Shown here piece by piece: positions 59,461-63,653 of a stretch of DNA of 64,000 nt. The DNA is taken from contig CAWHDP010000002.1 of assembly GCA_963828125.1 (NCBI GenBank), forward strand, positions 1,720,394-1,784,393, in the 5' to 3' direction. The stretch is from an uncultured Chlamydiae bacterium (lineage in GTDB: Bacteria; Chlamydiota; Chlamydiia; Chlamydiales; SM23-39). Within the stretch, counting starts at the first letter, position 1, and every line of letters begins with the position of its first letter. The translations under genes were made by a program, and so were the position numbers. The notes below the pieces were generated by a model, which was not told the origin of the DNA, did not search any database, and worked only from the letters and a program-made list of their open reading frames with translations.

Positions 59461-59475
59461 CCGTAGAAAATACGG
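59461..59475 (-). promoter_or_regulatory. D motif copy D1 (ccgtagaaaatacgg), candidate operator
   Basis: Read in the gene direction: CTACCGTATTTTCTACGGC. Lies 75 nt upstream of the longest J-domain ORF start. Confidence 0.45.
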
Positions 59476-59510
59476 TAGTCGCATAAAAACCAACAATATG
59501 ATTTTTTTAA

Positions 59511-59526
59511 ATGTCCAATGTCCAGT
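59511..59526. repeat. family-C terminus fragment (C3)
   Basis: atgtccaatgtccagt matches the right arm of C1 (ccaatgtccagt). Confidence 0.5.
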
Positions 59527-59532
59527 TTAATT

Positions 59533-59560
59533 TATACTGCGGCCACCCGGCCGCAGTATA
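59533..59560. mobile_element. family-B element reduced to its termini (B2)
   Basis: TAtactgcggcc-accc-ggccgcagtaTA. 10-bp stem. Lies 22 nt downstream of the stop of the 167-aa gene. Confidence 0.7.
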
Positions 59561-59581
59561 CTTGCGATTAGATAATTTTGT

Positions 59582-60085
59582 TTACGTATAATCCACTTGA
59601 TTGGGTTTGAAAAATTGGGTCCACGCCGATTGGTGGCCTTCCGCAGATTCTGCCTCACAACGGAGCCATTCAAATACGCCGTTGCGCTCGAGTCCACTTT
59701 TCAACAACTCATTCTTTGTGGTGATTTCTATCTGCTGCGCATCTACGAGTCTCTTTGCTTCGCGGAACTCATTTTTTAATGTACACAGTACACAAGACCA
59801 AGTCAAAGGGGTCTCTAGACGAGCTTTAAACATCTTTTTTATCGCATCAAAGAGCCGAATGCACGCTTGAGGAGCTTCTTCGTCAGTCCTGTCAGCAGAA
59901 AATGAAAAGGAGACGTCGACATTTTCAGACTTGGCGCCCTGCGCGCCTAAATAGTTGGCGCCCTGCGCGACTAAATGGTATGTTGTTTGATACTTCTCAC
60001 CCATTTTTTGAAATCCGAAGTCTTCCGGGCGAACTCCGCCTATGGGATCACTGCTATGGATCTTTTTCACTGACAATTCAATCAT
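59582..60085 (-). CDS. hypothetical protein
   Basis: 167 aa from MIELSVKK, with GGAGGG 5 nt upstream; the longer ORF-track start lies inside repeat A5. Contains a 24-bp tandem duplication (59931-59978). No domain recognised. Confidence 0.5.
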   Translation of the reverse strand: MIELSVKKIHSSDPIGGVRPEDFGFQKMGEKYQTTYHLVAQGANYLGAQGAKSENVDVSFSFSADRTDEEAPQACIRLFDAIKKMFKARLETPLTWSCVLCTLKNEFREAKRLVDAQQIEITTKNELLKSGLERNGVFEWLRCEAESAEGHQSAWTQFFKPNQVDYT

Positions 60086-60099
60086 TTTTACCCTCCATT

Positions 60100-60139
60100 T
60101 AGCCCGCATTTCTCACACAGACGCGAGAAATGCGGGTTA
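60100..60139. mobile_element. family-A element reduced to a 40-bp hairpin (A5)
   Basis: TAgcccgcatttctc-acacagacgc-gagaaatgcgggtTA. Lies 15 nt upstream of the ATG at 60085. Confidence 0.75.
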
Positions 60140-60219
60140 GTTATACACAAATTCCCGATTCTTCAGGTTGTTTCTGTATAGATTGCAAAGATTGTATAGG
60201 GTATGGGATTTGAAAAAGT

Positions 60220-60234
60220 CCGTAAAAAATACGG
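60220..60234 (-). promoter_or_regulatory. D motif copy D2 (ccgtaaaaaatacgg), candidate operator
   Basis: In the gene direction: CTACCGTATTTTTTACGGA. Lies 135 nt upstream of the ATG at 60085. Followed on the right by the hairpin gctgtcgggcgacagc (60237-60252). Confidence 0.45.
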
Positions 60235-60301
60235 TAGCTGTCGGGCGACAGCGTAAACTGACCCCTGACCGACCTCACCCAATCCAACTTCACAAAGGAT
60301 C

Positions 60302-62052: not shown

Positions 62053-62125
62053 ACACTCTCCTTATTTATAAATGGCTGAAAATGAAAAGAAGAGGATGGT
62101 GCGCCACGTAGGGATTCTTTTCAAT

Positions 62126-62137
62126 CCGTAGAAAGTA
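62126..62137 (-). promoter_or_regulatory. D motif half copy D4 fused to the B4 left terminus
   Basis: In the gene direction: gcaGTACTTTCTACGGA. Lies 74 nt upstream of the ATG at 62052. Confidence 0.35.
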
Positions 62138-62378
62138 CTGCGGCCACCCCAAATTGGTCATTTAAATGTTTTTTATGTTGAAAAACAGTTTTGACAACGG
62201 AAAAGAATAACACCGTAGTTTCTACAGGAGATATTAAACCGCTCGTCTTATTAAGATCGTTCTCTTTAACTGGACATGCAACCGGTTGGGACACTCTCAT
62301 ACAGGCTGTCTGTGTATCGGGCGCTTCTCAATGCTTTGACGCTGCCCAAATTCACACTTTTGGGGTGGCCGCAGTATA
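62135..62378. mobile_element. family-B element with split arms (B4) enclosing ~185 bp of unrelated sequence
   Basis: Left arm gtactgcggccaccccaaatt (62135-62155). Right arm gctgcccaaattcacacttttggggtggccgcagtata (62341-62378). Confidence 0.65.
62213..62228 (+). promoter_or_regulatory. D motif copy D5 (ccgtagtttctacagg), candidate operator
   Basis: On the plus strand, ataaCACCGTAGTTTCTACAGG has the same orientation relative to the F-box gene as D1-D4 have to their minus-strand genes. Lies 174 nt upstream of the ATG at 62402. Confidence 0.4.
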
Positions 62379-62401
62379 AACAACAGAAGGAGAAATAATT
62401 T

Positions 62402-63295
62402 ATGTCTATTGTAATGACAGGGCAGAACCGAAATAGTCCTCTCACTCTGCGCCTCATGCCTCCGGAGGTACAACGAGAAGCTCTCTTGTTCTGCAGCCCT
62501 AAAGATCTTGCCTTGTATGCTCGTGTAGACAAGGCTGCAGCGGCATTTCGCCACGAAAACGCTGCCAGTTTCCTTGAGTTCCATTTAAAAAATGCAAAAT
62601 CTCTCGACTGGGACAAGATTGAGAACAATATCGCTGCACTTACGCATTTAACAGATACACAAATACAAAATCTAGGAGTTGAGGATTTTACCCGCTTTCT
62701 AAATGAACTGAGGGGGCTCGTAAACTTGCATGAGGGCAATGTAAAGAAGGCGAGACTTTTTAGACTGTTTTTTTCATTCTGCACCGAGGTCACTCAACTA
62801 GATCTGGGAAAATACCCTAGCCGCACTCTGATCTCCTCTATTTTAGACGCGCCAAATATCCGCTCCCGCATCAAAGTATTGAATCTGCCTGGTGCAGAGG
62901 AAAAAAATGGGCCTCCCCCACCCGTGCCAGGATTTTCATATGACGGGCCCAGGGGCCTCTATCAAAAAATCTATGAAATGCCATCCTCTCCTGGCTGGCG
63001 CAGGCTGGTTGGAAAAACGACAGATTTATCCATTTCATTTCCTGCACAATGCGAAGACCCTGTCCAACTAGGTGAGACTTGCAATCAGGCAGCGGCAACG
63101 ATTCAAAGAGTGTGTGAGGGATGGCATTGGTGGGTTGGTTTGGGGGGCAGCGCCGATCTTTACATGAAGGTCAATAGGCAAATAACCCAACTCCATCAGC
63201 TCGGCGCCTCTCTAAACACAAGTGATGGACAGCTGCAGCATGAACTATCGTTAGCAAAAAATTTTGAGGGTTTTGGATGGCTATCCCCCTCATAA
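62402..63295 (+). CDS. eukaryote-like F-box domain protein
   Basis: 297 aa with RBS AAGGAGAAATAATTT-ATG. LRLMPPEVQREALLFCSPKDLALYARVDKAAAAF fits L-P-x-E-[ILV]-x3-[ILA]-[LF]-x2-[LCS]-x3-D-L-x3-x-x-V-x-K. The rest is unassigned (possibly LRR-like). Confidence 0.6.
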   Translation: MSIVMTGQNRNSPLTLRLMPPEVQREALLFCSPKDLALYARVDKAAAAFRHENAASFLEFHLKNAKSLDWDKIENNIAALTHLTDTQIQNLGVEDFTRFLNELRGLVNLHEGNVKKARLFRLFFSFCTEVTQLDLGKYPSRTLISSILDAPNIRSRIKVLNLPGAEEKNGPPPPVPGFSYDGPRGLYQKIYEMPSSPGWRRLVGKTTDLSISFPAQCEDPVQLGETCNQAAATIQRVCEGWHWWVGLGGSADLYMKVNRQITQLHQLGASLNTSDGQLQHELSLAKNFEGFGWLSPS

Positions 63296-63308
63296 AAAAC
63301 CAGATTCG

Positions 63309-63337
63309 CTGTCCCTTTCGCTTACGCGAAGGGACAG
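63309..63337. terminator. hairpin between convergent genes (F-box + / small ORF -)
   Basis: ctgtccctttcgc-tta-gcgaagggacag. ~12-bp stem with one bulge. Confidence 0.55.
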
Positions 63338-63355
63338 CCAATGCACTTCACTTTT

Positions 63356-63580
63356 TCAGAGGATGGTGCAGGGACAGGAAGTTGAATCTTTTGTTCTCTT
63401 GCTCGTCGCATACGAAAAATCTCCACCCCATCCTCCTTTCATATGCTCTCCAAAAGCAGGAGCTGGGGAAGGCGGCGCAGATGACTCTGGTTCAACCAAC
63501 GCAACGTCGCTGCTTGGAGATGGTTCGGACTTAGGATACTGAACATGAGGATATGAATTTACTGGTAATATTGATGACAT
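63356..63580 (-). CDS. small Pro/Ser-rich hypothetical protein
   Basis: 74 aa from MSSILPVNSYPHVQYPKSEPSPSS, with AAGGAG 7 nt upstream of this ATG. Confidence 0.4.
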   Translation of the reverse strand: MSSILPVNSYPHVQYPKSEPSPSSDVALVEPESSAPPSPAPAFGEHMKGGWGGDFSYATSKRTKDSTSCPCTIL

Positions 63581-63638
63581 AGGCTTTCTCCTTTTAAAAG
63601 CTGCACATAGCATGAACAACACGCCGAATTAAAAAAAC

Positions 63639-63653
63639 CCGTAAAAAATACGG
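63639..63653 (-). promoter_or_regulatory. D motif copy D3 (ccgtaaaaaatacgg), candidate operator
   Basis: In the gene direction: aaaCACCGTATTTTTTACGGG. Lies 59 nt upstream of the ATG at 63580. Confidence 0.45.

Follow-up and report, generated by a model that had tools for sequence, protein, structure and literature searches.

What does a short palindrome do that stands before every transcription unit of an accessory gene island, and which protein reads it? The question is raised by a stretch of 64,000 nucleotides (nt; 64 kb, hereafter the window) from an uncultured chlamydia, in which an island of 7.5 kb (~56.3–63.9 kb), with 42–49% G+C against ~52% in the window's other non-island stretches, is flanked on one side by a gene for a GerE-type regulator (55501–56337) and on the other by a decayed second copy of an ankyrin-SET (Ank-SET) gene and the end of a histidine-kinase gene. 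The palindrome, a 17-bp box of 6-5-6 design (consensus ACCGTA-TTTTY-TACGG), precedes all five island units, and sequence comparison suggests that it is probably a lux-box-like operator, to which the LuxR-type receptor specified by the border gene would bind as a dimer. Such a dimeric helix–turn–helix (HTH) operator had been proposed in the preliminary description of this DNA, and the proposal now finds support in boxes at nine related loci, in the co-variation of the box with a recognition-helix residue, in a match from an unbiased genome scan and in a fixed spacing to −10-like hexamers; it is from these that we infer binding.

Boxes and predicted promoters of the island

Five copies upstream of five accessory units had been noted, and this is borne out by exact matches to the pattern ACCGTAKTTTYTACRG at 59461–59476 (−), 60220–60235 (−), 62212–62227 (+) and 63639–63654 (−), and by the register of the remaining copy, D4, whose distal half is the end (..GCAGTA) of a C-type miniature inverted-repeat transposable element (MITE), so that GTA-N5-TAC is kept. 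There are four full copies and one degenerate copy, three of the five showing perfect dyad symmetry within at most one mismatch. In shuffled versions of the window the motif matched 0.13 times on average, and five matches were reached in 0 of 100 shuffles. The earlier statement that the rest of the window holds no further copy agrees with a pattern scan of the 64 kb at up to two mismatches, which returned a single extra match (11297–11312) without the GTA/TAC core. Distances to the start codon, previously given as 75, 135, 74, 174 and 59 nt, come to 73, 133, 72, 173 and 57 nt from the 17-mer, the same within counting conventions. The boxes are as follows.

59460..59476, minus strand: box D1, ACCGTA-TTTTC-TACGGC on the gene strand, 73 nt before the longest open reading frame (ORF) start, 59386, of the J-domain/Ank-SET operon
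60219..60235, minus strand: box D2, ACCGTA-TTTTT-TACGGA, 133 nt before the ATG at 60085 of the gene for a protein of 167 amino acids (aa)
62125..62141, minus strand: box D4, GCAGTA-CTTTC-TACGGA on the gene strand, 72 nt before the ATG at 62052 of the 526-aa gene
62212..62228, plus strand: box D5, ACCGTA-GTTTC-TACAGG, 173 nt before the ATG at 62402 of the 297-aa gene
63638..63654, minus strand: box D3, ACCGTA-TTTTT-TACGGG, 57 nt before the ATG at 63580 of the 74-aa gene

The units that they precede are listed next.

56475..59386, minus strand: unit 1, J-domain protein (58079–59386, start uncertain) and Ank-SET protein (56475–58082), in overlapping ORFs
59582..60085, minus strand: unit 2, 167-aa protein of no known family
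60472..62052, minus strand: unit 3, 526-aa HIT-like protein with a 2H-SAK phosphoesterase domain and an HPHSH motif
62402..63295, plus strand: unit 4, 297-aa protein, F-box-like by eye, without a Pfam match
63356..63580, minus strand: unit 5, 74-aa Pro/Ser-rich protein

A T-rich spacer lies on the gene strand in all five copies; the divergent, promoter-only region 62053–62401 holds two boxes (D4 and D5), one directed toward each gene, and the convergent region 63296–63355 has a palindrome of its own and no box. These arrangements bear on the notion that the box might serve as a weak attenuator or intrinsic terminator, in which a hairpin of 5 bp followed by a T run would end minus-strand transcription of the upstream gene. 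A consensus scan does classify D1, D2 and D3 as terminator-like on the minus strand, and the D3 stem can be extended by AAAC/GUUU pairing, but the stem itself is only 5 bp long, short windows fold at −4 to −13 kcal/mol, D4 and D5 fold no better than shuffles and have no U tract, and terminator-like sites are not enriched in the region (12 against 9.5 expected). Moreover, D4 and D5 lie in the divergent region, where there is nothing to terminate, whereas the convergent region is boxless, and homologous boxes in relatives also occupy divergent promoter regions. What is conserved is sequence and not pairing, as no compensatory changes are seen and the D5 change breaks a pair. With this balance of evidence termination is a very improbable role.

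When at least four of six matches to TATAAT with A2 and T6 are required, 10 of the 19 oriented sites tested have a −10-like hexamer starting 23–25 nt past the 17-mer (Fisher p=1.4e-5 versus the other offsets between 10 and 45), and the looser NANNNT is found at this distance in 15 of the 19. The box lies 57–83 nt before the start codon in most cases. For the window the candidate elements are these.

59431..59436, minus strand: predicted −10 of D1, CATAAT, at +24
60191..60196, minus strand: predicted −10 of D2, TACAAT, at +23
62252..62257, plus strand: predicted −10 of D5, TAAGAT, at +24
63609–63614, minus strand: weak −10-like element of D3, CATGCT, at +24 (or TGnTATGTG at +27)
62096–62101, minus strand: weak −10-like element of D4, CACCAT, at +24

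Since the hexamer starts 23–25 nt after the box, the predicted transcription starts would place the box centre near −44 with a poor −35 region adjoining it, which is the position of a class II activator. Lux and tra boxes occupy this class II position. For NarL, binding at −43.5 has been described (PMC10853779). Inspection by eye for sigma-28, sigma-54 and ECF-type (extracytoplasmic function) −35/−10 pairs around the boxes gave no consistent partner element.

The same spacing speaks to a second RNA-level explanation, by which the box is a hairpin in a 5′ leader (a protein-binding or stability element) of transcripts initiated farther upstream, for example at TGGACA-N16-TATACT, made up of a palindrome and a C end. 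Promoter-like matches do lie upstream of D3 and D1 (63727–63700 and 59524–59495), yet such matches are not enriched (17 against 12.3 in shuffles), the hairpin is weak and without co-varying pairs, and the enrichment of −10-like hexamers 23–25 nt downstream of the box puts the box itself upstream of the transcription start. A leader element thus appears about as improbable as a terminator.

The gene-tracking orientation emphasized in the preliminary description holds for all five window copies and for the four synthase promoters of relatives described below, but not as a general requirement, as four sites in relatives keep the same spacing to the −10 with the spacer orientation reversed. Because of these four sites, the strict orientation within the window may partly reflect common descent.

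The border regulator and its relatives

The presence of a LuxR/GerE gene at the island border, as described earlier, is confirmed by a match to the Pfam GerE domain PF00196 (E=4.3e-12, residues 209–263), and sequence matches in the PDB are to the DNA-binding domains of SsrB, DesR, RcsB and NarL.

55501..56337, minus strand: LuxR-type regulator, N-terminal autoinducer-binding-like fold and C-terminal GerE HTH, recognition helix RTVESY (Ser243)

No Pfam match was returned for the N-terminal domain even at E≤10, the autoinducer-binding model included. An AlphaFold model (predicted local distance difference test score, pLDDT, 93.5; 59 homologues) was therefore compared with the PDB by Foldseek, and the best matches are full-length receptors, SdiA at the top followed by RhlR, LasR, TraR, QscR and CviR (E 1e-7 to 1e-4), the LasR ligand-binding domain alone giving a target-normalised TM score of 0.6–0.69. 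Because Foldseek returns quorum-sensing receptors, the model points to an autoinducer-binding-type fold for this domain. The regulator belongs to a family with 310 representatives at E≤1e-30 among 1.84 billion sequences, and its named members are chlamydial, including the Protochlamydia amoebophila UWE25 protein Q6MA62.

Genomic loci were gathered for homologues 38–61% identical to the regulator. At five of these (L109/L110, L111, L112, L137 and, in P. amoebophila, L141) the homologue is divergent to a conserved gene of ~245 aa without a Pfam match, and the intergenic regions between the two hold palindromes of the same 6-5-6 design as in the window with a different half-site (AGAGTA-N5-TACTCT type).

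L109: AGAGTA-TTTAA-TACTCT, between the homologue and the 245-aa gene
L111: AGAGTA-GAAAA-TACTCT and a second site, between the homologue and the 245-aa gene
L137: AGAGCA-AAAAA-TACTCT, between the homologue and the 245-aa gene
L141 (P. amoebophila): AGAGCG-TTAAA-TACTCT and AAAGTA-AAAAA-TACTAT, between the homologue and the 245-aa gene

Read toward the 245-aa gene, these boxes have the perfect half in the distal position, a TTTTY-like spacer and 59–76 nt to the start, as in the window. In a comparison of P. amoebophila strains all six loci are identical and so carry no footprint information. The model of the 245-aa protein (pLDDT 95.3) has the fold of a cyclodipeptide synthase (CDPS; TM 0.74–0.82, E ~1e-11), with the CDPSs of Nocardia brasiliensis, Fluoribacter dumoffii and Rickettsiella grylli as top Foldseek matches. 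Ser47 and Tyr206-Pro207 are invariant in 26 sequences; on our reading of the alignment they would be the counterparts of the catalytic Ser and of the Y-P pair in CDPSs of the XYP subfamily. CDPS genes have been noted in Parachlamydia and Protochlamydia (PMC2922099), and CDPS gene clusters often include LuxR-family regulators, regulators of the LuxR and MarR types having been reviewed (PMC4159871). The divergent LuxR-family/CDPS pair, that of P. amoebophila included, looks like a LuxR/LuxI-style module in which a CDPS replaces LuxI. In the window there is no LuxI and no synthase homologue, and none of the matches of a homology search limited to shared 5-residue words could be assigned to the source genome as a synthase; the regulator looks like a LuxR "solo" without a synthase in that genome.

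The two half-site types are matched to the recognition helix. Homologues with AGAGTA-type boxes have the helix RTVENY, as opposed to RTVESY in the window protein, and overall Asn goes with AGAGTA in five loci and Ser/Thr with ACCGTA in four, the window included. At the fifth Asn locus, L112, only degenerate AGAGTA-type sites lie by the LuxR gene, and a hybrid box, ACCGTA-TTTTC-TACTCT, precedes by 60 nt an operon with a RING-finger gene among its members. All three loci fetched for Ser/Thr homologues carry ACCGTA-type boxes.

L140: a perfect box, ATACCGTA-TAAAG-TACGGTAT, 76 nt upstream of the homologue
L138: ACCGTA-TGAAA-TACGGT, a perfect box within a divergent promoter region at a distance of 3.4 kb from the homologue, and two copies of ACCGTATTTTGTACAGG
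L139: ACCGTATTTTATACGGA and TCAGTATTTTATACGGT, 62 and 61 nt upstream of two genes

Within 109 kb of relatives' loci, at up to one mismatch, three boxes of the window (D) type were found against 0.025 expected and three of the AGAGTA type against 0.145, the expectations coming from first-order Markov resampling. A neighbour-joining tree indicates three or more separate origins of Ser/Thr and places the window protein among those of the Asn type. The co-varying residue aligns with Val189 of NarL, and Lys188, Val189 and Lys192 make the base contacts of NarL (PMC10853779). At the Val189-aligned position, 208 full-length family members have Asn in 81 cases, His in 65, Ser in 12 and Thr in 5, the rest having other residues; the large His class may recognise a third half-site.

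An independent line of evidence comes from a scan of 185,579 GTDB species genomes with ACCGTATTTTYTACGGNNTTT, a pattern derived from the window boxes alone, the resulting 99 loci then being searched with the regulator protein. At one of them, L053, a full-length family member (hhalign 99.6%, E=1e-23) is followed by the box ATACCGTAAAAAATACGGTA, whose ACCGTA-core 17-mer starts 3 nt past the stop codon and lies ~68 nt upstream of the next ribosome-binding site and ATG. Terminator-like palindromes and a coding stretch conserved in Methylotenera and Methylobacter account for most of the 99 loci, and the scan gave no match from the source organism. A Legionellales locus (L031) has two GerE-type genes in tandem, with the box 60 nt upstream of the second; this second gene was not counted as a family member, since hhalign supports a relation of the HTH alone. 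A separate observation from the scan is an extended palindrome, ATACCGTATTTTTTACGGTAT, present many times per genome in Legionella lytica and Legionella MAG_CO105, before as well as after genes (loci L013, L014, L016, L019, L070, L072, L074, L083 and L105). Its core equals the chlamydial box core (compare L140), and it may be a regulon, a REP-like (repetitive extragenic palindrome) repeat or a coincidence. A scan of the JGI metagenomes with the D pattern gave 22 matches, all unrelated.

It is conceivable that the box is a real promoter-proximal operator used by some other DNA-binding protein, such as a partner of the histidine kinase or a nucleoid-associated silencer, the closeness of the LuxR-type gene being incidental. 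The C-terminus of a histidine kinase is indeed encoded at the other island border (63835–64000), and the regulator's own promoter has no box. Against this stand the boxes of the same design beside LuxR-family homologues in nine other loci from different genera, the co-variation of the half-site with a residue of the recognition helix, and the unbiased scan match only 3 nt from the stop codon of the L053 family member. Another reader is accordingly unlikely, if still the strongest of the competitors, and the border LuxR-type protein remains the preferred candidate.

Mobile repeats around the boxes

The preliminary description saw the island as a series of repeated [hairpin – motif – ORF] cassettes, and this part of it finds no support. 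The hairpins are MITEs of two families, B with terminal repeat TAGCCCGCATTTCTCACACAGACGCG and C with terminal repeat TACTGCGGCCACCCCAAAAGTGT. A C copy (24675–24756) is nested in the B copy at 24584–24831 with TA on both sides, and the B copy at 45885–46013 has the corresponding empty site with a single TA. This comparison of filled and empty sites shows C to be a MITE that duplicates its TA target site.

63658..63705, strand not assigned: C MITE, full palindrome, 3 nt distal to D3; other copies or arms at 59533–59560, 60302–60325, 62134–62153 and 62339–62380
56438..56503, strand not assigned: B MITE between the Ank-SET and regulator genes; another copy at 60099–60140

Neither family is taken to belong to the operator, and three of these elements touch the boxes or their leaders, the C MITE at 62134 having its end fused into D4, that at 62339–62380 forming an arm in the D5 leader, and the B MITE at 60099–60140 lying in the D2 leader. 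Further MITE sites in the window are at 37218–37290 and 8470–8512. Because copies of both families are found beyond the island with no motif beside them, the cassette appearance is a by-product of MITEs piling up in intergenic DNA. Of the hairpins reported 22–24 nt after each stop codon, that of the 175-aa gene stands (a C palindrome, at 22 nt), while the palindromes after the 526-aa and 297-aa genes are different ones (60371–60448 and ~63318–63340). Integron or attC cassettes were considered and rejected, as no integrase lies in or beside the island and the palindromes after the ORFs are MITEs of at least two unrelated families. The motif itself was likewise rejected as a MITE or REP element, being 17 bp long with non-homologous flanks and without copies outside the island in the 64 kb.

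Another form of the repeat argument holds that the motif is a passenger of C-type MITEs or of small promoter-bearing duplications, its orientation and position being due to common descent. Every window box is 3–66 nt from a C arm, D5 lies between the C arms at 62134 and 62380, and D4 is fused to a C end; in addition, at L138 a D-like site is duplicated in tandem together with another MITE, with a period of 186 nt. However, the flanks of the five boxes share no homology beyond ~10 nt of T-rich sequence, two C copies (24677 and 8485) have no accompanying box, other genera, without the C element, have ACCGTA boxes, and a scan of the JGI metagenomes for C gave 0 matches. No MITE separates a box from its predicted −10, each lying either on the distal side of the box or >80 nt downstream, and neither the fixed −10 spacing nor co-variation with the regulator would be expected of passenger DNA. 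A passenger origin therefore seems improbable, though less so than either RNA-level explanation, and terminator and mobile-repeat readings alike fit poorly. The L138 MITE (TTAACGCGGAGGCGCGGAGACGCAGGGACGCGGAG..), flanked by TTAA, is seen beside D-like sites at 468–812 and 9473–10000, where it fills the region upstream of the LuxR homologue. Short-read assemblies of the source organism break at the C and B repeats, and one contig, JBAVKL010000062.1, 100% identical to the window, ends at 60396.

The surroundings of the island add several observations. A remnant of the second Ank-SET gene occupies 63770–63880, with one stretch 81% identical to 56905–56963, and its segment 63829–63870 resembles, by eye, the gene start at ~58050–58085, the parts being joined by a large internal deletion. 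The histidine-kinase end (63835–64000, minus strand) encodes the C-terminus of an ATPase domain (..GKGSSFIFTLP..) and runs off the window, placing the island between a LuxR-type and a sensor-kinase gene. A homologue search with the Ank-SET protein found no paralogues in the genome, its nearest match being a relative with 44% identity. At the locus of this relative (L113) the J-domain/Ank-SET operon is present without a D box and has a different upstream repeat: a ~50-nt sequence, AAGTTTTGCTTATTTTTAAATCAACTTTATTAATTTTTTCTTTA, recurs upstream of three hypothetical genes (5372–5490, 6385–6572 and 13608–13660). Accessory genes of these genomes may often share upstream modules. An Rfam scan gave one tRNA and nothing else. 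Elsewhere in the window, 18599–21409 (minus strand) is a 936-aa ORF of about eleven diverged 138-nt (46-aa) tandem repeats, and 47645–49450 and 49553–51499 (minus strand) are adjacent diverged paralogues of 601 and 648 aa with 74–85% DNA identity in stretches; this pair lies in a stretch of 36–40% G+C, has no Pfam match and looks like another accessory region.

A putative regulon under an apparent solo receptor

In the mechanism that we favour, a dimer of the 55501–56337 protein would bind the 17-bp palindrome of ACCGTA-N5-TACGGT type. The box, ~32 bp upstream of the −10 hexamer and next to a poor −35 region, would then have the class II activation geometry of LuxR-, TraR- and NarL-type proteins, and because of this geometry binding of a ligand in the N-terminal domain would most likely switch on the five island units together, activation being the more likely mode of control as judged from promoter layout. 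In relatives, the regulator divergent to a CDPS-fold gene with the family box in its promoter would parallel LuxR/LuxI, whereas in the source genome the protein would act as a solo receptor and control, as its regulon, the eukaryote-like genes of the island next to it (J-domain, Ank-SET, F-box-like and others).

Several points weigh against this mechanism. The region upstream of the regulator gene (56338–56474) contains a B MITE only, and the proximity of every box to a C arm, with D5 between two of them, has already been described. D4 and D5 are degenerate, and the start codons from which distances are counted are predictions. Three of the four synthase-facing boxes in relatives lack the strict −10-like hexamer at +23–25. 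The comparison extends over about ten sampled loci, and the tree is a simple neighbour-joining one. Finally, the very distant family member at L053 has Phe at the co-varying position and yet an ACCGTA box, so that the residue rule is not absolute.

Comparison with known systems places the pair nearest to LuxR with the lux box and TraR with the tra box (Vibrio fischeri, Agrobacterium). Common to them are a receptor combining a ligand-binding fold, modelled in the chlamydial protein, with a GerE HTH, a dyad-symmetric site, here at a predicted position, about one turn upstream of a poor −35 (centre −42 to −45) and, as for LuxR/LuxI, a divergent biosynthetic gene with a box in its promoter in the chlamydial relatives. 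In contrast, no LuxI-type synthase is involved, its place being taken in relatives by a CDPS-fold partner that was not found in the source genome; the box is 17 bp (6-5-6, A/T spacer) as against 18–20 bp for lux and tra boxes; the N-terminal domain of the regulator has no Pfam autoinducer-binding match; and the host is an obligate intracellular chlamydia. With LuxR solos (SdiA, QscR, OryR/PsoR, PluR/PauR), of which SdiA is the top structural match, the protein apparently shares the lack of a cognate synthase in the genome; some solos sense ligands other than N-acyl homoserine lactones and control host-interaction genes, but the chlamydial target set differs in being an adjacent island of eukaryote-like genes. 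Class II activation by NarL/FixJ proteins offers the same HTH type, a position similar to that predicted here for the box, and a co-varying residue aligned with the base-contacting Val189, whereas the chlamydial regulator has no receiver domain or phosphorylation, and NarL half-sites are 7-2-7 and of another sequence. In Legionella and Coxiella, the PmrA and CpxR regulons are defined by one short motif that precedes many host-targeting effector genes at a fixed −10 distance. PmrA and CpxR are OmpR-family response regulators that bind direct repeats, and the chlamydial regulator differs from them as a putative ligand-binding LuxR-type protein with a palindromic candidate site. The CDPS clusters with LuxR/MarR regulators (PMC4159871; PMC2922099) share with the present case CDPS genes in chlamydiae and LuxR-family regulators alongside.

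The literature searched holds nothing describing the chlamydial regulator, its box, the co-variation or the control of effector-like genes by it. To our knowledge, very few pairs of transcription factor and operator are known in Chlamydiae, and none involves a ligand-sensing LuxR-type receptor, nor did the literature searched turn one up. A wider scenario may be put forward tentatively, as a possibility short of an even chance: environmental chlamydiae, P. amoebophila among them, would possess a LuxR/LuxI-like circuit with a CDPS in place of LuxI, and in the lineage of the window the receptor would have lost its synthase, exchanged Asn for Ser and its box AGAGTA for ACCGTA, and come to drive an effector-like island. 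Through the solo, host manipulation would then be timed by a diketopiperazine-type signal, whose source could be kin, the host itself or co-resident symbionts such as Legionella-like bacteria.

If the operator reading is correct, the effector-like genes of the island (J-domain, Ank-SET, F-box-like) would make up a regulon of an uncultured chlamydia that can be directly put to the test, and a signal-sensing circuit would be tied to such genes in an obligate intracellular bacterium. The helix residue, Asn versus Ser/Thr, matched to AGAGTA versus ACCGTA, would represent a natural specificity switch, testable by a single point mutation, and the motif would be a simple means of predicting co-regulated accessory genes in chlamydial metagenome-assembled genomes. 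It would also provide a lead to small-molecule signalling inside amoebae, possibly by cyclodipeptides, for which P. amoebophila would serve as a cultivable system.

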